Below, piece by piece: positions 7,084 through 57,786 of a stretch of 64,000 nucleotides of DNA. The stretch spans positions 1-64,000 of IMG/VR virus record IMGVR_UViG_3300045988_082442; one strand, written 5' to 3'. Positions within the stretch are counted from its first letter, which is position 1; every line of letters begins with the position of its first letter. A model generated the notes under the pieces. It saw only the letters and a list, made by a program, of their open reading frames with translations. It had not been told where the DNA came from and did not search any database. Made by a program: the position numbers and the translations under genes. The stretch is from a virus.

Positions 7084-8985
7084 ATGAAAATATGTAAATT
7101 ATGTGGAAAAGAATTTGAACCAAAAGTATATAATGCTACAATATGCTATGATAGGCATGATATTCCTTGTAGAATATGTGGGAACCTAGTAAATATAGAT
7201 GGACCTACGAACAAGGCTAAAAGAAAGATGTATTTAGAAAGAGGATATGTATATTGTTCTCATAACTGTGGTTGCATAGGTGCTGGGCAGGATAAATGGG
7301 ATAATGCAAATGCAAAAGTAGATATGGATAGATTAAAGTATTTAAGAACTCAAACTTCAATGTTTGATATTGATATTGCTAAAGAACTAAATACTACTGT
7401 TGACTTTGTTATTAGTAGATGTGAAAGATATGGCTGGAATAGACCAGAAGAACTAAAGAAAGAACTTCAAGAGAATAAAAACAACATAGTATCTGACATT
7501 ATGACAGAGAAATATAAAGATGAAGAAGTTAAGAATGAAATGCTACAGAAAGCCAGTGATACATATAAAGAAAGAACTGGATTTGAACATAACTTTAAAA
7601 ACCCAGAGGAAGTAGCAAAATATGTTGAAATAAAAAGAGAGAAATATGGTACTGCTTGTAACTCAGAAAAAGGGCTACAAACAAGATTAGAGAAGAATAA
7701 TGGTGTTTTCTGGACGGAAGAACAATTAGAGAAATCAAAAGAAACAAAGATTAAAAGATATAACAATGCTAATTTTAACAATAGGGAAAAATCTAAAAAG
7801 ACAATGATTGAGAAATATGGTGATACTGTTCATTCTAATAAGATTAAAGATACTTGGAATAGTAAGACTTTTGATGAAAAACATAAAATAGTATTAAAAC
7901 AACAAAAAACAAATATGGATAGATATGGTGTTAAAAATTCTCTTAGTAGAAGTGATATTCGTGAAAGGATAAAACAAACAAATATTAAGAAATATGGTGT
8001 TGATAATCTATTTAAGTCACCAGAAGTACAAGAGAGGATAAAGCAGACTAATTTAGAGAAATATGGAACAATGTATCCAGTAACATTATTCTCTTATCTA
8101 AATAATAAGACTATATCTAAAATAAATAAAAGATTTTATGACAAGTTATTAGAATTAGGCTGTAATGCTGAGCTTGAGAAATCAATAGGAAATAAAGCTT
8201 ATGATATTTGTGTAGATAAAACTTTAATAGAAATAAATCCAACATACACTCATAATAGTACAGTTGGACCATTTATATGGGGAAGTAAACGAGAACCTAA
8301 ATCTACTACTTATCATCTTGAAAAGACACAGACTGCCTTAGCAAATGGTTATAGTTGTATTCATGTATGGGATTGGGATGATTACGATAAGATTATAAAT
8401 CATTTTAAACCTAAAAAGACACTATATGCTAGAAATTTAGAAGTTAGAATTGTTCCTAATGATGTAAGCAGAAAGTTCTTAAATGATTATCATTTCCAAG
8501 GTAGTTGTAATAATCAACAAATTAAACTTGGGTTATATAAAGATGACGACCTAATTCAAATGATGACTTTTGGTAAGCCAAGATATAATAAACATTTTGA
8601 ATATGAACTATTAAGATTATGTACTAATGAAGATTATATTGTAGTAGGTGGTGCTAATAAGTTGTTTAAATACTTTATAGATAACTATAATCCTGCAAGT
8701 ATTATCAGCTATTGTGATTTGTCTAAATTTAATGGAAGCGTTTATACTAATCTAGGTTTTGATTTACAGTCAACATCTGCACCAACTAGACATTGGTTTA
8801 ATATAAATACTGGTAGACATATTACTGAAAATTTATTAAACCAAAGAGGCTTCTCTCAATTACATGGAGATAATGATTATAAACTTTATAAGAAAGGTGA
8901 CTCAAATGAACAGCTCATGCTAGAAAATGGTTACTATGAAGTGTATGATTGTGGACAGGCAAGTTATGTTTGGAAAAAGAAGTAA
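7084..8985 (+). CDS. putative free-standing homing endonuclease, paralogue of 1979..3583
   Basis: ATG 7084 preceded by GAGGGGG; the track extension from 7000 runs through the promoter. About 8 K-Y-G repeats (REKYGTAC, IEKYGDTV, MDRYGVKN, IKKYGVDN, LEKYGTMY). Core YDICVDKTLIEINPTYTHN..YSCIHVWDWDD. Shared C-terminal domain VVGGANKLFKYFIDNYNP. Confidence 0.6.
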   Translation: MKICKLCGKEFEPKVYNATICYDRHDIPCRICGNLVNIDGPTNKAKRKMYLERGYVYCSHNCGCIGAGQDKWDNANAKVDMDRLKYLRTQTSMFDIDIAKELNTTVDFVISRCERYGWNRPEELKKELQENKNNIVSDIMTEKYKDEEVKNEMLQKASDTYKERTGFEHNFKNPEEVAKYVEIKREKYGTACNSEKGLQTRLEKNNGVFWTEEQLEKSKETKIKRYNNANFNNREKSKKTMIEKYGDTVHSNKIKDTWNSKTFDEKHKIVLKQQKTNMDRYGVKNSLSRSDIRERIKQTNIKKYGVDNLFKSPEVQERIKQTNLEKYGTMYPVTLFSYLNNKTISKINKRFYDKLLELGCNAELEKSIGNKAYDICVDKTLIEINPTYTHNSTVGPFIWGSKREPKSTTYHLEKTQTALANGYSCIHVWDWDDYDKIINHFKPKKTLYARNLEVRIVPNDVSRKFLNDYHFQGSCNNQQIKLGLYKDDDLIQMMTFGKPRYNKHFEYELLRLCTNEDYIVVGGANKLFKYFIDNYNPASIISYCDLSKFNGSVYTNLGFDLQSTSAPTRHWFNINTGRHITENLLNQRGFSQLHGDNDYKLYKKGDSNEQLMLENGYYEVYDCGQASYVWKKK

Positions 8986-22664: not shown

Positions 22665-22671
22665 AATATAA

Positions 22672-22703
22672 AAAGAAGCCTAACTAGGGCTTCTTTTATT
22701 TTT
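22672..22703 (+). terminator. rho-independent terminator
   Basis: AAAGAAGCC (22672-22680) / GGCTTCTTT (22688-22696), then TATTTTT. Confidence 0.7.
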
Positions 22704-22761: not shown

Positions 22762-25416
22762 ATGAACATAAATTTTGGAATGGATAATTTCTATGTGCGT
22801 TATTTGAAAAGATTCTTGGCTAGTGAAATGCCACAAACAAATATGGTTCTTGGTGAATTTGATAAAGAGGACCAACAGTTATTAATTCAATATTTAAACT
22901 TACCAAATGTTGAGCCTATGTCAAGAGTTCAAAGAAAACTAAACGAGATGTATCCTCAACTTAATCAATTATTTAATATGAAATTACAAGATAATTATAT
23001 AAAATGGACTTCAAAAGTTATTTCAGAAGAAACTTCTGCTTTTATTAGGGATAATGTAGATGATATATCTGCATATTGTAAAACAGTTGGTTGGAAATTA
23101 GATGATGCCCACGAGTGGGTAAATAGTGCAATGGACATCAATGGAGATGGGGTTATAGATGAAACTGATGGAGCTATTGTTAGAGATATTGCATATAATA
23201 ATGAAGGTTATGAACTTGCAAAAGGAAGAATAACAGGTAAGATTGTTTGCCCTAATATTGTTAATTGGGTAGATTTAAACCCTACAATATCTTTATATAA
23301 TTCATATAATCAGTTAGTAACTACTTCTTCATTTGAAGTTACAAGTAATACATATTTATTTAAGGATTTAGACCCTGGTGTTTATTCTGTAAAAATTGTA
23401 ATAGATGGTTATGTTGATAGTACTATGAACAATATATATGTAAAGACTGGTTTTGTTTCTAAAGTGCAAGATATAGATATATCAAGATGTGCTGGAGATG
23501 TAAATGGAGATGGTACTATTGATGCAACTGATAAGAGTATAATAGGGGCAAATTATGGAACTACAACTCCTAGTACCCTAATATATGACTTAAATAAAGA
23601 CGGTACTGTTAATATAGCAGATTTATCGATAGCAGCCTATAATAATGGTAGAATAGGAGCTAACTATAATTGGACTGAAAACTTTGAAGAAATGGATAAA
23701 AAGAATAAATATCCAGCTGATGTCAGAAAGAAAGCTGATATAAATTTAGACGGTGTTGTAGATTATAAAGATGTAGAGCTATTTCAAACATATCTTGAAT
23801 CTGAAAGGGTGTTCTTTTCTGTATCTATGGAAAATAGGAAAAATCATTTTCCAAATAAAGATATGCTTGTGTTTATAAATCAATTTGATGGTACTTTTTT
23901 ATATGATTATGCTATTAGAGATGGTGGGGCTGGTGTTGATAATTTCCCACATAAAAATAGTACAGGTTTATATAAAATTGGTTTATACAAATGTAAACCA
24001 AATCAGAAAGTAACTATTGCTCATAACAATACAAAATCTACTAGACTGGTTATAGGTAGTTCACCTGCTAGACTAAAACAAGATGTAACATCATTTATGT
24101 TACAAAATGTTGTAGAAGTTACATTAAACCCAGGAGAGAGTTTTCAGTATCAAGCAAGTGGTAGTGATACTGGAACTTATAATGCAAATTGGATTTGTAT
24201 TCAATGTCCATCATCACATGGTGATTTAAGTGGTACTGTTGAAAAGTCTATAACTGGTGAGATTGGTGATGTAAATATGGACGGAAAAATAGATATGGAA
24301 GATTACAAATTAGCAGCTTATTATACAGCAACTGGAACACCAGATGCTGAGAAACTACATTGGGAAGCATCACCTAGACAAATACTTGCTATGGATGTAG
24401 ACAAAGATGGTAAAGTAACTGTTCAAGATGCAAAATATATCTATGATTTCTTACATGGAACTTTTCCAGGAATAAGCTTAGGTTTATATCAATACAATTA
24501 TAATGTTCCTAGTGATTACTCTGATATGGACAATGTATCTAATCTACTTATCATAGATGGCTGGTATGAAAAAGAAGTAGGAATACCATTTTTAGATTTT
24601 GTTAAAAATCCTTGGATAATACATGAGAAATTCTTTAATTATCTTTTAGGAATGGCTGTTCATAAATATTCTAATTCAGAAAGTATAACATTTGTTCAAG
24701 AGTTGCTAAAAGAATATTATCCACATACCCATTTTGGTACTGATTTCTTACAAACTGGTATTTATAATAACACTATGATTGATATGTTGAAAGAATACCA
24801 AAGAAGTAAAATAGTATTTACCTATGGTGACTTAGATAGAGATGGTAAATTAACTAATAAAGATTTAATAATTTTAAGAGAGTATTTATATGGATTAGAT
24901 GATTTAGAATTAAATACACCTATTACTTTAAAAGAATTAAGGGATTATTTAGATGGCATAACTACATTAAGTTATGAAAAGATGCAATGGGCAGATGTAA
25001 ATAGAGATGGTGTTGTAGATGAAACTGATTATCAATTACTTCTAATTTATAAAGGGGATAAAACACTTGCAGGAAAAGTCAAAGATTATTTAGACCATAA
25101 GGGTACCTTAACACCTGATGAAATGGCTCTTGCAGATATGGACAATGATGGGGAAGTAACATCAGATGATTATGAGAAACTTATGAGTTATCCTAGAACT
25201 TTAACTGGTGTCCAACTAACACATGCTGATATAAATCACACTGGTTTGATTGATAAATCATGTTACTATATTCTAGAATCTAATATAAATGGAACTTCTG
25301 ATAGTTTAACAGATTATTTAGTACCATTTTCACTAGGATGGTATGATATGGATACAGAGTTATATATGGAACAAGAATATAACAGTTACGAAACAATAAG
25401 TGAGGTGAGTAAGTAA
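22762..25416 (+). CDS. tail-associated multi-dockerin protein (884 aa)
   Basis: 10-11 segments of the form DxNxDGxhDxxD plus an amphipathic helix. A beta-sandwich-like stretch GRITGKIVCPN..YSVKIVIDGYV. Two stretches resembling the PG_binding_1 domain. Confidence 0.7.
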   Translation: MNINFGMDNFYVRYLKRFLASEMPQTNMVLGEFDKEDQQLLIQYLNLPNVEPMSRVQRKLNEMYPQLNQLFNMKLQDNYIKWTSKVISEETSAFIRDNVDDISAYCKTVGWKLDDAHEWVNSAMDINGDGVIDETDGAIVRDIAYNNEGYELAKGRITGKIVCPNIVNWVDLNPTISLYNSYNQLVTTSSFEVTSNTYLFKDLDPGVYSVKIVIDGYVDSTMNNIYVKTGFVSKVQDIDISRCAGDVNGDGTIDATDKSIIGANYGTTTPSTLIYDLNKDGTVNIADLSIAAYNNGRIGANYNWTENFEEMDKKNKYPADVRKKADINLDGVVDYKDVELFQTYLESERVFFSVSMENRKNHFPNKDMLVFINQFDGTFLYDYAIRDGGAGVDNFPHKNSTGLYKIGLYKCKPNQKVTIAHNNTKSTRLVIGSSPARLKQDVTSFMLQNVVEVTLNPGESFQYQASGSDTGTYNANWICIQCPSSHGDLSGTVEKSITGEIGDVNMDGKIDMEDYKLAAYYTATGTPDAEKLHWEASPRQILAMDVDKDGKVTVQDAKYIYDFLHGTFPGISLGLYQYNYNVPSDYSDMDNVSNLLIIDGWYEKEVGIPFLDFVKNPWIIHEKFFNYLLGMAVHKYSNSESITFVQELLKEYYPHTHFGTDFLQTGIYNNTMIDMLKEYQRSKIVFTYGDLDRDGKLTNKDLIILREYLYGLDDLELNTPITLKELRDYLDGITTLSYEKMQWADVNRDGVVDETDYQLLLIYKGDKTLAGKVKDYLDHKGTLTPDEMALADMDNDGEVTSDDYEKLMSYPRTLTGVQLTHADINHTGLIDKSCYYILESNINGTSDSLTDYLVPFSLGWYDMDTELYMEQEYNSYETISEVSK

Positions 25417-26231
25417 TGAATGGTTATATGGGTAGTCTAATTCCAAATAATGCAGAAACAGGTAGGCAAGGATTTCAACAATGGGAGTGCTATATGTTAC
25501 TTAAATATGGAAACAAAGGAAACTTTGGATTAGGTGGAAATACTGAATATCTTTGCGAACTTCCACTCTATCCAGAGGAAGTACAAGAAAGTATAAATGC
25601 TAACTGGGAAGAACAAAGTGTAATAGGAAGGTCAGCACCATTATCTGCTTACTCTAATACAAGTTTAAAATCAGTATCATTTAGTATGGATTTGCATAGA
25701 GATTTTCTTACTGGTAGCTATTCTTTAACAGATGAGAATTTAAGGGAGATTGCTTCTGATAAACGTGTTTCACATGACACTGTTAGAAGAAACCAAGCTG
25801 CAGGTAGACAATATGATTATGTAAACGGTTTATTTGGTGGTAGAACATGGTATATAAATATAAATAAGATGCTACAAATGGCTTGTTATCCACAATATAC
25901 TAATGCAGGTGCAATACCACCAACTACTTATTTTGTATTTGGACAAATGATTTTAAAAGGTTATATAGAAAGTTATTCTACACAATGGAAGAAACCTATA
26001 ATAAATACTTTCTATGGTTGGAACAGTGTTAGTATTACAATGAAATGTTATCCAGATACAGTTATATCTGCAAGTGATATTATATCTGGAAATACAAGTA
26101 CACAAAATACTTATAATACTAGATTTCCTTCTAAGGTTGGTAGCAGTAATGTTATGGCTAGAGATTTTGGTAGAGGAAATTATAGAGGAAGTTCATCAAT
26201 AGGAAATTTAACAGATATACTTATAACATAA
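25416..26231 (+). CDS. hypothetical tail/baseplate protein
   Basis: Start ATG 25416 overlaps the last base of the upstream TAA stop. Contains EEQSVIGRSAPLSAYSNTSLKSVSFSMDL, which is reminiscent of tube-initiator-like proteins; this is a weak call. Confidence 0.45.
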   Translation: MNGYMGSLIPNNAETGRQGFQQWECYMLLKYGNKGNFGLGGNTEYLCELPLYPEEVQESINANWEEQSVIGRSAPLSAYSNTSLKSVSFSMDLHRDFLTGSYSLTDENLREIASDKRVSHDTVRRNQAAGRQYDYVNGLFGGRTWYININKMLQMACYPQYTNAGAIPPTTYFVFGQMILKGYIESYSTQWKKPIINTFYGWNSVSITMKCYPDTVISASDIISGNTSTQNTYNTRFPSKVGSSNVMARDFGRGNYRGSSSIGNLTDILIT

Positions 26232-38922: not shown

Positions 38923-41018
38923 CTATTTCACAAATTCAGATACTTCATTTTTATAGAAGTCATAATTTATTGAATCTTTATGGTCAAGATATTCATTTAC
39001 AAATGCACTAATTAAATCTGCTAATCTAGTAAAATCTTCTTCTTTAAAACCTTTTGTAGTCATTGCAGGTGTTCCAATTCTAACACCAGAAGATTTTAAA
39101 GGTGGAAGCTCGTCATTAGGAATTTGATTTTTATTAAGAGTAATATTTATCTTATCAAGCTCAGTTTCTAAATCTTTACCTGTCATCTTCTTATTTGTAC
39201 TTGAATAAATATCTAGAACAAACATGTGATTTTGAGTTCCATTAGAGATTATCTTATAACCTAATCTTATAAATTCTTTTGCAAAAGCATCAGCATTTAA
39301 TATAACTTGTTTTGCATACTCTTTAAATTCAGGTTGTAATGCTTCCTCAAAACAAATACCTTTACCAGCAATAATATGTTCTAGTGGTCCTCCTTGTATT
39401 CCGTGGGAACACAGCAGAGTTTATTTTCTTTGTTAAATCTTCATCATTCCAAAGAATGATACCACCTCTTGGTCCTCTTAAAGTTTTATGTGTGGTAGAT
39501 GTAACAACATCAGCCCAACCAATAGGAGATGGGTGAACACCACCAGCAACTAAACCAGCAACATGTGCCATATCACGATTTGTTATCTTTATGTTTCCAT
39601 AAAGTCCAGACTATACCATTAACTTTTATATTTCCAAATAAAACCTGAATAAGATTTATATTCATTAGTGCAATTTCTATAAATTCCGTCTATAGCAACT
39701 CCTGTAATTTTTGATGCTTCTTTTACACTTGGGAATGTTGCTATTAAATTTTGATTCATATCATATTGTTCTGTTATCTTTCCGTGTGTTCTTTGTGCTG
39801 CCTTTCTAACCCCATCTGCTAATCCTGTGTTGTATGCGTGTTGAGTATTATAGCCAGGAGTACACCATTCGAGATTAGTATATTTATTATTTCTTTTATT
39901 ACCGTCCTTATGATTTACTTGTGTGTTCTTATTAGGGTTCTTATTTTCTATAAATAAACTTGCAACCAATGTATGTATATATATTTGTTCAAATTTTCCC
40001 AAAAATCTAAATGTTGCAAGTGTATAGTCATTTGACTTAATATTAGAATAATCATAAATCTTTTCAGCCGAATGTCTCACTACTTTTTTACCTTTTCTTT
40101 CATAAGTAGTTTCTCTTGCCAAACTTTTTACTCTCCCATAATTACTAACTTCATATAACCCTTCCCAGTTAGGAACTGCTTTCCAAATTTCCAAATCTTA
40201 TTCACCTTCTTTCCATATAATAAGTTACTCCTTGGTAGTCGTTGAGAGCTTACCATGCCATAATGGTTTAGGTCTATCTCTGCTGATTGTCCAATCTTAA
40301 ATATTTTCAGGTGTTATTAAAATTTCTAATAATAACTACTAATTTAAGCTCTAAGGAGTTTCCAGCATATTCGGAGTTCAATAATATATTTCTATATTAA
40401 GGGGCTGCTTGCTTAGGCACAAAGCAAATTAACCATATATACAGGTCTATCTCCAGTTTTATTATAATAATCTTCTATTATTCTGGCTATTCTTTCATAA
40501 TCTATAATTTGTGAATAAGAACTTGCACCAACTAAAATCATTTTAGGGTTATATTGATATAATTTGTTTTCTATATCTTCATAATCAATAATACCATTTT
40601 CTGTAACACCATAGGAAACTATATTATAATCTTGTCCACTAAATGACATTTTATGTCCGTGTGTTAGATGTCCTCCAGCACCTAAATCCATACCTAAAAC
40701 TGTATCTCCATTATTTAATAATGCTCTGTAAACAGCTTGATTTGCAGAAGAACCACAATGTGGCTGAACATTAGCAAATTTGCAACCAAACAATTTACAT
40801 ACATCATCTATTGCTTTTTGCTCTATCATATCTATATATTTACAACCACCATAATATCTTTTATTAGGATAACCCTCTGCATATTTATTTGTTAGAATAG
40901 AACCACAAGCTGCTTTAACCCTATCACTACAAAAGTTTTCACTTGCTATCAATTCTATATTCTTATTTTGTCTGCCTTGTTCCATTTTAATTATATCTTC
41001 ATAAGAAGCTTCTATCAT
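38923..41018 (-). CDS. glyA: serine hydroxymethyltransferase, interrupted. Exon 1 is 41018-40432, the group I intron is 40431-39576, and exon 2 is 39575-38923 with a 1-nt frame break at 39403.
   Basis: [21 protein letters not shown]..; [29 protein letters not shown]; [27 protein letters not shown]. The reconstructed length of 412 aa is typical of SHMT. Confidence 0.85.
39576..40431 (-). mobile_element. group I intron (856 nt) carrying an HNH homing endonuclease ORF
   Basis: The 5' exon ends in U and the intron ends in G. Splicing restores ..VYMV|DMAHVAG.. in frame. Candidate P7 pairing is GACUA (40240-40236) with UAGUC inside GGUAUAGUC (39613-39609). Confidence 0.75.
39619..40194 (-). CDS. 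intron-encoded HNH homing endonuclease (NUMOD4 + HNH_3-like)
   Basis: TTG start with GAAGGTG 8 nt upstream. Motifs [21 protein letters not shown] and [18 protein letters not shown]. Confidence 0.8.
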   Translation of the reverse strand: MEIWKAVPNWEGLYEVSNYGRVKSLARETTYERKGKKVVRHSAEKIYDYSNIKSNDYTLATFRFLGKFEQIYIHTLVASLFIENKNPNKNTQVNHKDGNKRNNKYTNLEWCTPGYNTQHAYNTGLADGVRKAAQRTHGKITEQYDMNQNLIATFPSVKEASKITGVAIDGIYRNCTNEYKSYSGFIWKYKS

Positions 41019-44831: not shown

Positions 44832-44975
44832 TTATATAGAAATAACTTGTAAAAGATATTGTGCTAATTATGATACATGTGATAAAAAGCATATACATAT
44901 CCACGAAATAAGTGATAAAACAACCAGTATTAGTTGTATTGCTTACAAAAAAAAGGAGGAAACTCGTGAAAGTTA
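44808..44975 (+). CDS. small Cys/His-rich protein (55 aa), candidate partner of the MazF-like toxin
   Basis: ATG 44808 with AGGAGG at 44793-44798. Overlaps the toxin start by 10 nt. Confidence 0.5.
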
Positions 44976-45289
44976 AAAGAGGTGAAATATGGTATTGTAA
45001 GAATTTTGGTAATGGGTTAAAAGGCATTATATCTGGTCCAAGACCAGTATTAGTAATTTCAAATGATACTTTTAATGCTTGTAGCCCAGTTGTAAATATT
45101 CTTGGAATATCTGGTCAAGATAAAGAAAGTCCTGTTCACTATAAGGTTGCATTAGAAGAAGATAGCTATGTAAATTGTGAACAAATATATACAGTGAATA
45201 AATCATATATGATGAGAAAGATGGGAGAATTGGACGACCATCAAATGTTAGAAATTGAAAACTTATTAATGTTTCAATTAAATATGTAA
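44966..45289 (+). CDS. mazF: MazF/PemK-family endoribonuclease toxin
   Basis: GTG 44966 after AAAGGAGG. VKRGEIWY..GPRPVLVISND..SPVVNILGIS aligns with B. subtilis EndoA (VKRGDVYF..GVRPVLVIQND..SPTAIVAAIT). Confidence 0.8.
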   Translation: MKVKRGEIWYCKNFGNGLKGIISGPRPVLVISNDTFNACSPVVNILGISGQDKESPVHYKVALEEDSYVNCEQIYTVNKSYMMRKMGELDDHQMLEIENLLMFQLNM

Positions 45290-55104: not shown

Positions 55105-57786
55105 ATGAACTTAATACAAAATATTTTTCAAAACCCCAATTTTAAAGTTGAGGGTGACCATCATAAATTAAAGAAAAGAATATTGAAAGATATAATCAAC
55201 ATGAACTGGTTTAACGATTGTGATTTACTTATAGGATATTCAGATGGTCAAAGAGTATATACTAATCCAAAGCAATGGCAATTAGATGCAGCAAATAGTT
55301 TATTTGAGTTTTATTGGAATTATACAGTTGATAGATATACTAATTATGACGCACTAGAGGATGAAATTTATAACCACATGAAGAACTCAAAATATGTAGG
55401 GGTACAAACAACAGTATTACCAAAATTTACAATACCATTTAGAGCAGATAGTGGACAATGCATGATAGATGAAAATGGAAATCAAACATTTAGAGATGGA
55501 ACACCAACTAGACCATTTTATTCTTTAATCTATATTGCACAAAATGGATTTATTGATTTTGATGATAAGATTAGATTAAAAGACTGGGATTCAGTTATAA
55601 GAAGTAACCCTAAATATTTAAGATACTTTGAAACTTGTTTAGACCATTTTGCAGATGGTGAAAATAGTGTCAAGAAACAAATAAGAGATTTAGTTAAAAC
55701 ATATAAAGATTTTAGAGATTATTTGGACCCTAATCTTCCAATAGTAGAAGATAGAAAATGGTTGTATGATTTCTGTGTTGAAGTAGATGTAAAGTGTGAC
55801 CCTTATAAAAATTATGAAACAGAATTATTACATAAAAATGGTTTTATAGTTATGGGTGGTAATGAATATATTTATTATAATGATATACCATGTGTAAACT
55901 GTGGAAAACCACATTATAGAAATGGTTTATGTAAAGACTGTTGTGAAATGAATTTTAGAGATAGAATGATAGGTAATAAACTATATGGAAAAGCAAGTCA
56001 AAGAAGTAACTCAATGCATCTAAACGAAATAAAGTTAGCAGGTGCAGCTGCAAGTGCAAGTTCAAGTAGTTATAGAGTTAGTGGGGATACATCAAGACAA
56101 GCACACAGTATGGATGATGAGAGTATTATATCAGCAAGTACAAGTGCAATATCTAGCAGAGCAAGTAGAGCTGCAGGAGAACCAGCAACAGTAGGTATAA
56201 ATACATCTGGAAATTCAGCAGTTATAGTAGATGATGATATTGGTAACGCAGCAAGTTCAAATAGGTCAAGTTTTGTAAGTAGAGCTGCAGGTGTAAATCT
56301 ATCAAGTAGTATTACAGGTGTATCAACAGCAGTTTCAGAAGAAAGAATGTCAGACGCAAGTCATACAGCAGTAAAAAGTAACCCAAGTAGAGCTTCAGGT
56401 ATAACAGTTAGCCAGAATACAACTGGAATATCAACAGCAGTTTCAGAAGAAAGAATGTCAGACGCAAGTCATACAGCAGTTGCAAGTAAAGTAAGTAGAA
56501 TGCCAGGACAAAATATGGGAAATGTTACACAGGTAGGTACAACAACATCTGCTAGTAGTACATCTGTATCAGATGATGGTATTGGGGCAGCAGCAAATAC
56601 CAGTGTTTCAAGTGGAAGCAGTCAGTCAAGGGGACAAAATATTGGTATGCAAAAACCAAGTGCAACATCAAGTGTAATTGATGAGGAAACTTTACAATTT
56701 GCAAGTTATGATAGTAGAGTTGCAGCATTTACACATACTTCTGGTGCCTCAGATGTAACATCAAATGAAGAAGTACAAAGAGCAGGATTGGAATCAAGAA
56801 CAGCAGGTTTTCAAACAGCAGTTAGAGCTGTAAATATAGGAAACAGTGAATTTGCAAATTCTAGAACAAGAGTTGGTGTTAGCGTTGGAACTACAACATC
56901 AGAGCAATCATTTGCAAGGAATAAAGATACAGTTGATGAGACTGGAAAAGCAAGTAGGAGTAGTATTATAACATCCCCATCAGCAACAAATATAAATGAT
57001 GTTAATTTTATAGGAAATATAAAAGACTTTGTTTATACATCTCCTAATACAGTTAGATACTATTCATCTCAAGGTAAGATATTCGATATGACCATACCAA
57101 AAGGTTATAGATACCCAGATAATATATCAACAAATAGATTCTTTATGTTTGGTAGTTTTAATGGTAATCTTGAATTATTAAAACAATTCTGTCCACAAAA
57201 TGCTTTCGTATTTGACCCATTTGCAGGTCATGGAGATAGAGCATTATTCTTTATGGAATATGGTTGTAAAGCATATATAGGAAATGATACTAACGTAAAA
57301 GAATGGACATTTTTAAATGATAATCTAATCAAGTTAATAAACAAATACAAGAGATTTAACCAAAAATGTGAGGTTAGAATAAAGAACTCAATGATATATG
57401 AACCAGAATTAGAGAATAAAGTAGACTTTGTTTACACATCCCCACCATATTTTGATTTTGAAATGTATGATGGATTTACTGAACAGATAGCAGGAATGAA
57501 AACATACGATGACTTCCACAGAGAGTTTTCAGTACCTATATTCAAAAATGTATATAGATATATGAAAGATGGTGGTGTAGTTATTCTACAAACAGAAAAA
57601 GATGCAAAATTAAAACAAAAGTGGATAGATATGATGGTTAGTGTTGGTTTTAAAAACATTACAGAACATGATTTAAGTAATGAACAAAAACATGGAATAA
57701 ATAAAACTATTCAAGAGATAGGTATATTTGTTAAAGGTGACTATAACAGGGGAGAGGTAAAACAAACAACTAACACATTATTTTAG
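55105..57786 (+). CDS. fusion protein: unknown N-terminal domain + CxxC..CxxC + about 340-aa Ser/Ala/Thr-rich SR-repeat linker + C-terminal SAM-dependent (S)PPY methyltransferase
   Basis: Motif I is FVFDPFAGHGDRAL and motif IV is DFVYTSPPYFDF. Paralogue of 57801..59714. Confidence 0.7.
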   Translation: MNLIQNIFQNPNFKVEGDHHKLKKRILKDIINMNWFNDCDLLIGYSDGQRVYTNPKQWQLDAANSLFEFYWNYTVDRYTNYDALEDEIYNHMKNSKYVGVQTTVLPKFTIPFRADSGQCMIDENGNQTFRDGTPTRPFYSLIYIAQNGFIDFDDKIRLKDWDSVIRSNPKYLRYFETCLDHFADGENSVKKQIRDLVKTYKDFRDYLDPNLPIVEDRKWLYDFCVEVDVKCDPYKNYETELLHKNGFIVMGGNEYIYYNDIPCVNCGKPHYRNGLCKDCCEMNFRDRMIGNKLYGKASQRSNSMHLNEIKLAGAAASASSSSYRVSGDTSRQAHSMDDESIISASTSAISSRASRAAGEPATVGINTSGNSAVIVDDDIGNAASSNRSSFVSRAAGVNLSSSITGVSTAVSEERMSDASHTAVKSNPSRASGITVSQNTTGISTAVSEERMSDASHTAVASKVSRMPGQNMGNVTQVGTTTSASSTSVSDDGIGAAANTSVSSGSSQSRGQNIGMQKPSATSSVIDEETLQFASYDSRVAAFTHTSGASDVTSNEEVQRAGLESRTAGFQTAVRAVNIGNSEFANSRTRVGVSVGTTTSEQSFARNKDTVDETGKASRSSIITSPSATNINDVNFIGNIKDFVYTSPNTVRYYSSQGKIFDMTIPKGYRYPDNISTNRFFMFGSFNGNLELLKQFCPQNAFVFDPFAGHGDRALFFMEYGCKAYIGNDTNVKEWTFLNDNLIKLINKYKRFNQKCEVRIKNSMIYEPELENKVDFVYTSPPYFDFEMYDGFTEQIAGMKTYDDFHREFSVPIFKNVYRYMKDGGVVILQTEKDAKLKQKWIDMMVSVGFKNITEHDLSNEQKHGINKTIQEIGIFVKGDYNRGEVKQTTNTLF
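56321..56480 (+). repeat. tandem 108-bp duplication (52-nt perfect cores)
   Basis: 56321-56372 and 56429-56480 are identical (TATCAACAGCAGTTTCAGAAGAAAGAATGTCAGACGCAAGTCATACAGCAGT). They are in frame and encode ISTAVSEERMSDASHTAV twice. Confidence 0.9.

Follow-up and report, generated by a model that had tools for sequence, protein, structure and literature searches.

An array of dockerin-type modules on a protein encoded in the conserved baseplate region of large AT-rich phages

Few known protein-protein connectors bind as tightly and specifically as dockerins, which have been studied almost solely in plant-fibre-degrading bacteria. A 64,000-nucleotide stretch of viral DNA (positions 1 to 64,000 of the IMG/VR record IMGVR_UViG_3300045988_082442, hereafter the window) encodes, within a tail gene module, a protein in which an earlier note had recognised about ten dockerin-type calcium-binding segments. 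The locus raises the question of whether these segments are dockerins, and of what an array of them might do on a phage. The open reading frame (ORF; 22762..25416, plus strand, stop codon included) starts with ATG, encodes 884 amino acids (aa) and is preceded by a strong Shine-Dalgarno ribosome-binding site (RBS; GAAGGAGAGG). The first three residues (M1-N2-I3) were invariant across 58 homologues of the protein.

A regular expression for the strict calcium loop was applied to all six frames of the whole window. It returned ten loops, nine of them within this single ORF, which is far above chance. The nine loops start at residues 125, 246, 276, 326, 503, 545, 690, 745 and 792. A further segment at residue 823 (DINHTGLIDKSC) carries T and C at positions 5 and 12, which makes it degenerate in this protein, and is mostly canonical in relatives, 51 of the 58 aligned sequences having D at position 12. 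The earlier count of about ten segments is thus borne out as nine canonical loops and one degenerate loop, together making five two-segment modules (A to E). The nine canonical segments fit the dockerin pattern of about 22 residues, in which a helix comes after a 12-residue calcium loop with D or N at positions 1, 3, 5 and 9 and Asp at position 12.

The Pfam model Dockerin_1 (PF00404; gathering cut-off 22.9 bits) matched the whole protein with 107.8 bits (E 3.1e-31) over seven stretches. When the five modules were scored singly, all passed the cut-off (Table 1), and each scored higher with Dockerin_1 than with every EF-hand model. A reading of the loops as EF-hands was rejected on this basis, and because loop position 12 is Asp and not the Glu typical of EF-hands. 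Comparison of the family profile with all PDB sequences returned only dockerins, the best being the double dockerin Clo1313_0689 of C. thermocellum (E 1.4e-7). No PHROGs family was found for the 884-aa protein. The N-terminus (MNINFGMDNFYVRYLKRFLASEMPQ), judged by eye, has no hydrophobic h-region and so no signal-peptide-like start, which is compatible with release by lysis.

An AlphaFold2 model was built from the 58-sequence alignment (mean predicted local distance difference test, pLDDT, 86.2; predicted template modelling score, pTM, 0.57). The predicted model shows the paired-segment dockerin fold and matches solved dockerins, and DSSP assigned a helix after each calcium loop. The best Foldseek matches in the PDB were the type II X module-dockerin (XDoc) dyads of CipA and ScaA (4wi0_B, 2b59_B, 4u3s_B and 5g5d_B), with E values of 2e-6 to 2e-5, template modelling (TM) scores of 0.69-0.73 on the target and root-mean-square deviations (rmsd) of 3.1-3.9 Å over about 156 columns, that is, full XDoc chains. 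They were followed by the double dockerin 8x39 and the type I dockerins 4fl4_A, 2vn6_B and 4uyq_B (TM 0.65-0.78). Smaller matches were to CnaB2, to the transthyretin-like domain of carboxypeptidase D and to the peptidoglycan (PG)-binding region of SleC. The two findings that the earlier note had held would speak against dockerins, the lack of a dockerin hidden Markov model (HMM) match and a generic EF-hand without a paired-helix fold, were not what was seen. By HMM, by profile-to-PDB search and by predicted fold, the segments are genuine dockerin-type modules. In BFVD, the matches of the full model were mostly high-rmsd noise, except for two proteins labelled 'Dockerin type 1', and no receptor-binding protein fold was matched better than at chance level.

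Most family members are 630-720 aa long and have loops at residues 125 and about 159, the two segments of an ordinary dockerin (A) lying 34 aa apart. In the 884-aa protein the same segments are separated by an insert of about 180 aa, which carries a small beta-sandwich and the complete dockerin B (loops 246/276). The insert splits dockerin A and holds dockerin B, so that one dockerin is nested within another. The pairing of the segments is thus less simply sequential than the list of the earlier note suggests, since 125 pairs with 326. A relative lacking residues ~145-320, modelled as a control, gave no XDoc match by Foldseek. The XDoc match is therefore assigned to dockerin B (aa 243-297) together with the beta-sandwich before it (aa ~153-241); the query range, aa ~153-297, was inferred in this way and is not printed by Foldseek. 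In the predicted model these two units make an XDoc-like dyad, with an immunoglobulin (Ig)-like X module packed directly N-terminal to the dockerin. The sandwich corresponds to the carboxypeptidase-regulatory or Cna-B-like stretch proposed earlier, which was recovered in the fold (CnaB2 and transthyretin-like matches) and not by HMM, as CarboxypepD_reg (17.5 bits against a cut-off of 32.3), SdrD_B (17.1 bits) and GBD_IRG7_N (22.8 bits) all scored below their cut-offs. The insert was found in about 12% of the aligned family; it is what splits dockerin A in the subclade of the query (P0001-P0011), which shares 57-98% identity. A word-indexed protein search with the insert (aa 150-312) gave one weak match among 38 candidates scored, in a search that missed near-identical orthologues.

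The homologues formed 145+ clusters, and PF00404 was present in all of them. Across the family the strict loop count ranged from 1 to 9; the occupancy of dockerin D was variable, as was the number of modules beyond aa 700. A phmmer search with the non-dockerin N-domain (aa 1-124) against 1.84e9 representatives found 45 proteins of ~370-930 aa, and the N-domain lay at residue 1 in all 45, which makes it the family signature. Distant members (476-542 aa) carry zero or one Pfam dockerin and a significant PG_binding_1 match (PF01471) near the C-terminus of up to 38.8 bits (P0158, 37.1 bits; P0166, 38.8 bits), and P0152 had a PG_binding_1 score of 23.5 bits within the shared N-domain (aa 12-42). 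Alignment of query residues 1-684 with the distant relatives by hhalign gave a probability of 100% (E 1.7e-85) and placed query residues 621-684 on the PG_binding_1 region of P0158. On the 884-aa protein itself, PG_binding_1 had no Pfam match at E<=1, either in the whole protein or in excised regions. The two PG_binding_1-like stretches of the earlier note thus lack a Pfam match of their own and stand by homology to PG_binding_1-scoring relatives and by matches to SleC and CtpB.

A distant subfamily (A2) retains pair C, and its profile matched PDB dockerins at E 1.7e-10, again with the double dockerin (8X39/8X3A) as the best match. Pair C is therefore taken to be ancestral, with pairs A, B, D and E added later. 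As judged from these alignments, the scaffold consists of the N-domain, a jelly-roll-like beta-core and a PG_binding_1 domain, into the loops of which the dockerins are inserted. The ancestral form would have had an N-terminal PG_binding_1-like domain, a beta-core with one dockerin, and a C-terminal PG_binding_1 domain. The dockerin array of aa 689-845 sits in the last loop of the PG_binding_1-like domain, between the conserved elements 'YQ..K I.F..G' and 'F.LGW.D..TE', and the last helix of the aa 621-688 domain appears to be supplied by aa ~863-873. No Pfam match and no convincing structural relative were found for the beta-core, and no fibre-like repeat was seen in the 884-aa protein.

Candidate identifications of the scaffold fold as a cupin, carbohydrate-binding module (CBM) or jelly-roll, obtained by Foldseek with a dockerin-poor relative, were weak (rmsd 10-17 Å) and were rejected. 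A match in a Cyclobacteriaceae metagenome-assembled genome (MAG; L008, 8255..11209), a type IX secretion system adhesin of the SprB/CHU_C kind, aligned with the start of the beta-core at 31% identity over 88 aa (pairwise E 7e-7). The two may share an adhesin-type beta domain, and the match was considered too weak to build on. When 50,697 deposited phage genomes were searched by tblastn, nothing was found at E<=1e-5, and E<=1 gave one marginal 74-aa match in an unannotated faecal contig.

The gene order around the dockerin gene was sheath, tube, T4_baseplate, tape-measure-like protein, dockerin family protein, three small or medium proteins, lysin spike and gp25. This order was kept in relatives at 98%, 45% and ~30% identity (window, L001, L003/L004/L007 and L009, with L003/L004/L007 being the 45%-identical relative). 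The 143-kb contig of the dockerin-poor P0158 had the same order, the spike gene there lying ahead of gp25, a gene for a 745-aa protein and one for a P2 gpI-like protein. The 591-aa M23 peptidase protein is probably the central spike, because its same-slot counterpart in a distant relative has Phage_base_V, M23 and lysozyme domains. The fixed slot between the tape-measure-like and the hub/spike genes is good evidence for a structural role in the baseplate region, and it is no evidence for a location at the tail tip or in a fibre. Accordingly, the description as a tail tip protein can be kept for the contractile-tail/baseplate module with its conserved synteny, and not for the tip. The placement directly after the tape-measure gene agrees with the position and composition of the upstream protein, which gave no tape-measure family match. 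The hairpin between these two genes suggests a transcript boundary or an attenuation point inside the tail module.

A second baseplate protein of the same phage, with a gp6/Baseplate_J-like N-terminus, also carries a dockerin (Table 1). Its orthologue in L003 (17254..19476; 46% identity) has two tandem dockerins and occupies a different place in the tail module, so dockerin number varies in this protein too (1 or 2).

Table 1. Positions of the features of the 884-aa dockerin protein and of the surrounding structural genes in the window.
Feature	Position (nt)	Strand	Evidence and remarks
Second dockerin baseplate protein, 726 aa, gp6/Baseplate_J-like N-terminus	3643..5823	+	Dockerin at aa 379-437, 24.7 bits
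Tail sheath	starts 14798		Upstream of dockerin gene; family match
Tail tube	starts 16354		Upstream of dockerin gene; family match
T4_baseplate hub protein	starts 17192		Upstream of dockerin gene; family match
Tape-measure-like protein, 1118 aa	19308..22664	+	Coiled coil, Gly/Ala-rich hydrophobic core; position; no family match
Terminator-like hairpin, 11-bp stem and T-run	22671..22697	+	After tape-measure-like stop, before dockerin-gene RBS
N-terminal domain, aa 1-120	22762..23121	+	Three PG_binding_1-like helices, then alpha/beta unit; DSSP
Dockerin A segment 1, loop aa 125-136 and helix	23122..23199	+	Spliced with 326: 31.7 bits
Small beta-sandwich, aa ~153-241, X-module/transthyretin-like/CnaB-like	23218..23484	+	DSSP, Foldseek
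Dockerin B, aa 243-297, canonical two-segment	23488..23652	+	Dockerin_1 35.0 bits
Dockerin A segment 2, loop aa 326-337 and helix	23716..23805	+	Regular expression, alignment, Dockerin_1
Beta-core part 1, aa 349-500, conserved jelly-roll-like beta-sandwich	23806..24261	+	DSSP; no Pfam match
Dockerin C, aa 501-566, within beta-core	24262..24459	+	31.9 bits
Beta-core part 2, aa 567-620	24460..24621	+	DSSP, hhalign
PG_binding_1-homologous helical domain, aa 621-688	24622..24825	+	hhalign, SleC fold, CtpB C-terminal domain
Dockerin D, aa 689-765, segments 690 and 745 split by helical insert	24826..25056	+	37.1 bits
Dockerin E, aa 785-845, segment 792 and degenerate 823	25114..25296	+	28.5 bits, only first segment aligned
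Conserved C-terminal element FSLGWYDMDTE...ISEVSK, closes PG_binding_1-like domain	25297..25413	+	Alignment
271-aa protein, weakly P2 GpU-like (below Pfam cut-off)	25416..26231	+	Start overlaps dockerin-gene stop
Baseplate-wedge-like protein, 141 aa	starts 26244		Downstream of dockerin gene
538-aa protein	starts 26641		Downstream of dockerin gene; no family match
M23 peptidase protein, 591 aa	28274..30049	+	Family match
gp25	starts 30063		Downstream of dockerin gene
NrdD	starts 30638		Downstream of dockerin gene

Several other genes were recorded in the tail module and elsewhere in the window. Two DUF7487 proteins (1979..3583 and 7000..8985, plus strand) flank the gp6-like gene, one with weak restriction endonuclease/zinc-finger matches and the other with a Mom-like region, and may represent mobile genes or genes of DNA modification that break up the structural module. 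In L003, the 850-aa product of a gene upstream of T4_baseplate (1773..4325) had a weak intein-splicing match and MJ0330_N. A serine hydroxymethyltransferase gene is split on the minus strand (38923..41018) into an N-part (40413..41018, HMM positions 8-195) and a C-part (38923..39225, HMM positions 338-399), with an HNH_3/NUMOD homing endonuclease (39619..40194) between them. No Rfam intron reached the gathering score at this split, which may represent an intron, an intein-less split or decay. A protein with a PemK/MazF-like toxin domain is encoded at 44912..45289 (plus strand, E 7.6e-19). Two adjacent proteins on the plus strand, at 55105..57786 (893 aa) and 57801..59714 (637 aa), each have a C-terminal N6_N4 DNA methylase domain and a long N-terminal region without assignment.

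A protein identical to the one in the window was found on a 213,644-bp contig (ENA ERZ28663717, ZEEV15-1_SAMEA3664998_METAG-scaffold_17) with a name pointing to a human-gut metagenome, and relatives were found on contigs of 123-220 kb. The window has a G+C content of 29.2%, and the family contigs, of myophage type and at least in part from the human gut, have 27-35%. By tail sheath, the closest isolates were T4-like cyanophages, at just 25% identity. The carriers are a clade of large (~140-220 kb), AT-rich myophages that probably infect Bacillota. Four GTDB genome records contained a relative. Three of these were phage-type contigs, two with lengths of 202-220 kb and the third a 9-kb fragment, binned into MAGs labelled as uncultured Bacilli, Clostridia and Romboutsia, and the fourth was the weak Cyclobacteriaceae match. 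A SpoVG homologue, a Bacillota-type regulator, is encoded at 63587..63862 (plus strand, Pfam E 7.9e-26), and the phage also encodes the anaerobic ribonucleotide reductase NrdD/NrdG. The MAG labels, SpoVG and the anaerobic reductase together make an anaerobic Bacillota host likely, although not certain, and the G+C content of 29% is a further hint. No tRNA genes were found in the window, and Rfam gave no match over it.

Conservation was examined across the 58 homologues. The calcium-ligand positions 1, 3, 5, 9 and 12, together with G6 and the hydrophobic residue at position 8, were nearly invariant (entropy 0-0.6 bits), and positions 10, 11, 14, 17/18 and 21 were highly variable (2.5-3.4 bits). 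In cellulosomal dockerins these variable positions form the helix faces that touch cohesins. Segment C1 was the exception, being conserved over its full length, and positions 10/11 showed no internal symmetry between the segments of a pair. Both ends of the protein and its core were conserved, with variation restricted to the number and the surfaces of the dockerin modules. As a sequence pattern, invariant ligands with hypervariable faces would fit adaptive partner recognition, and would fit equally well modules that have no specific partner. Seen in two baseplate proteins or across the family, repeated gain and loss of modules, their display in loops of a conserved scaffold and the fast change of exposed faces with strictly kept calcium-binding residues make up the pattern expected of surface-exposed interaction modules, a pattern that does not name the ligand.

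What the array does can be answered tentatively. The reading that we favour, at somewhat short of even confidence, is that of a conserved baseplate-region protein with a PG-binding-type scaffold, carrying a calcium-dependent dockerin array for multivalent adhesion. The protein, lacking a signal peptide, would be synthesised in the cytoplasm and would enter the baseplate by way of its conserved termini and core. On release into calcium-rich gut fluid, the modules would bind Ca2+ and fold, and would then, as a multivalent and calcium-dependent adhesion array, keep the baseplate attached to a proteinaceous partner of the host surface, for which a cohesin-type module would be the obvious candidate. 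The PG_binding_1 domains might meanwhile engage peptidoglycan beside the M23 spike lysin. In the lineage of the query, the scaffold has gained dockerin insertions up to five modules (ten calcium loops), including the nested XDoc-like dyad.

Several points weigh against this reading of the array. No cohesin (PF00963) was found among the ~66 scanned proteins of the 64-kb window, nor in precomputed Pfam tables within 10 kb on either side of the gene in three lineages. Unconstrained surfaces would show a variability like that of the exposed faces. Peer and co-workers are said to have reported, in 2009, many dockerin-like modules in organisms without known cohesins; membership by sequence is therefore no proof of cohesin binding. 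The scaffold had no confident structural homologue among known baseplate proteins. The presumed place of the protein in the virion follows from gene position, and not from virion proteomics or structure. The slot beside the tape measure is that of inner-baseplate proteins in other contractile tails, and this would bring the scaffold close to the tail axis and away from the periphery.

Two alternatives survive best, and both are considered unlikely, if far from negligible. The first is specific cohesin docking, in which the dockerins, above all the XDoc-like dyad, would bind host surface cohesins of the scaffoldin, amylosome or toxin-complex type as the primary receptor step. This would agree with the real dockerin fold, and solved relatives of the dyad bind type II cohesins of cell-anchored scaffoldins. 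Hypervariable contact faces would be expected under host-range adaptation, the host probably belongs to Bacillota, the phylum with the best-known cohesin systems, and the protein is multivalent, with copy number expanded in two baseplate proteins. Against it, the sequences examined contained no cohesin; the segment pairs are asymmetrical at positions 10/11, and the gene slot suggests an inner-baseplate protein and not a fibre. The MAG labels (Romboutsia, Bacilli) are of taxa not known to have cellulosomes. In its widest form, namely that a widespread clade of large gut phages uses the cohesin-dockerin recognition of cellulosomes, a mechanically robust XDoc-type dyad included, as a Ca2+-gated multivalent adsorption device, with modules that would fold only once they have left the calcium-poor cytoplasm and with host range tuned by gain, loss and surface diversification of modules, the idea is an unlikely one in our view.

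The second, held to be just as doubtful as specific cohesin docking, is that the modules are structural calcium staples with no external partner, serving as calcium-dependent folding or stabilising elements, or as rigid spacers, that would strengthen the baseplate in the calcium-rich lumen of the gut. The ligands are indeed the most conserved positions while the surfaces drift, and segment C1, of the ancestral pair C, is conserved throughout as if it were packed on the scaffold. In two of the modules a long insert separates the segments, an arrangement atypical of binding-competent dockerins, and the failure to find a cohesin in the sequences scanned has its parallel in the many non-cellulosomal dockerin-like modules that likewise lack a known cohesin. 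However, repeated independent gain, loss and duplication in the loops of two baseplate proteins would be better explained by selection for surface interaction, the gain of a complete XDoc-like dyad would be easier to explain by surface interaction than by stability, and the tenth loop lost its ligands in the query lineage at no apparent cost.

Assembly within the virion, with the dockerins plugging into divergent cohesin-like modules of other phage proteins or into the protein's own jelly-roll core, was judged improbable. In its favour, the phage has dockerins in at least two of its baseplate proteins, the beta-core is a jelly-roll-like sandwich, and the cohesin scan spanned 64 kb, with ~150 kb more of the genome lying outside it. 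A conserved internal partner would nevertheless predict conserved faces, and the hypervariable faces, together with the lack of any cohesin in the Pfam searches of the 64 kb and the flanks of relatives or among the Foldseek matches of either model (the 884-aa protein and the dockerin-poor relative), make this less likely. Between the 591-aa and the 494-aa form of the neighbouring spike protein, divergence was scattered, with no domain-sized indel that would represent a co-varying partner domain. A role outside the virion, in which the protein is released at lysis and docks on cohesin scaffolds of the host or its neighbours, or acts as an exit-only accessory of the tail lysin, is most improbable: the dockerins and PG-binding domains without a catalytic domain, and the separate RBS after a terminator-like hairpin, would suit it, but the slot in the tail/baseplate operon is strictly conserved at ~30% identity, the stop overlaps the start of the next baseplate gene and there is no signal peptide.

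Within the literature searched, nothing was found on dockerins as parts of the tail, baseplate or receptor-binding proteins of phages, in line with the novelty claimed by the earlier note. The nearest mentions concerned a CBM annotated in an E. coli phage and a putative virus contig of anaerobic methanotrophic archaea (ANME) with dockerin domains. In BFVD, a few metagenomic gut-phage proteins already bear the label 'Dockerin type 1', and the bare presence of dockerins in phages is therefore not new. What appear to be undescribed are the array, the nested XDoc-like dyad, the PG_binding_1 scaffold, the fixed baseplate slot and the occurrence in large phages, part of them at least from the human gut, across more than 145 protein clusters.

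A multivalent adhesion array of this kind might represent a new, modular and calcium-dependent chemistry of phage adhesion or receptor binding. It would suggest cohesin-like receptors on gut Bacillota outside the classical cellulosome producers, and matching cohesins could give a handle on the hosts. If cohesin docking were true, cohesin-dockerin recognition would be shown in a virus for the first time, and functional cohesin-bearing surface proteins would exist in gut Bacillota that are not known for cellulosomes. The scaffold illustrates how binding modules may be built up by loop insertion, even to a dockerin within a dockerin, and for protein engineering the modules could be a source of new orthogonal connector pairs. 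Should the modules merely be calcium stabilisers, they would be a caution against reading a 'dockerin' annotation as proof of cohesin binding.

Compared with type I dockerins (PF00404; C. thermocellum Xyn10B, 1OHZ_B; C. cellulolyticum Cel5A, 2VN5/2VN6), the phage modules have the same two-segment arrangement of calcium loop and helix, as seen in both profile and fold matches. A type I dockerin is a single C-terminal module on a secreted enzyme, whereas the phage protein has five modules in the loops of a structural scaffold and no signal peptide; two of its modules are split by long inserts, and its segments differ at the recognition positions. With the XDoc dyads of C. thermocellum CipA (2B59_B, 5G5D_B) and A. 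cellulolyticus ScaA (4U3S_B, 4WI0_B) the predicted dyad shares the Ig-like sandwich packed N-terminal to the dockerin, at an identity of 15-21%; it is nested between the segments of another dockerin, and not placed at the C-terminus of a scaffoldin. The double dockerin of Clo1313_0689 (8X39/8X3A), the best PDB profile match of both the dockerin-rich and the dockerin-poor subfamilies, has tandem dockerins too, but only two of them, on a secreted serine protease with a known cohesin system.

Proteins with peptidoglycan-binding domains are found beside the tape measure in other contractile tails, as in the LysM proteins P2 gpX and T4 gp53. The phage protein has the same slot, from the tape measure to the hub/spike, and is likewise a non-catalytic baseplate-region protein with a small domain of cell-wall-binding type. 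It differs in having PG_binding_1 and not LysM, in being far larger and in its beta-core and dockerins, and no homology to these proteins was detected with PHROGs or Foldseek. The Ig-like domains of T4 Hoc and the BACON and CBM modules of tail proteins are accessory adhesion domains. The phage dockerins resemble these decorations as small autonomous modules on a structural protein, with variable copy number and fast-changing surfaces. The difference lies in the module, here a calcium-dependent dockerin, the only characterised function of which is, to our knowledge, high-affinity protein-protein docking.

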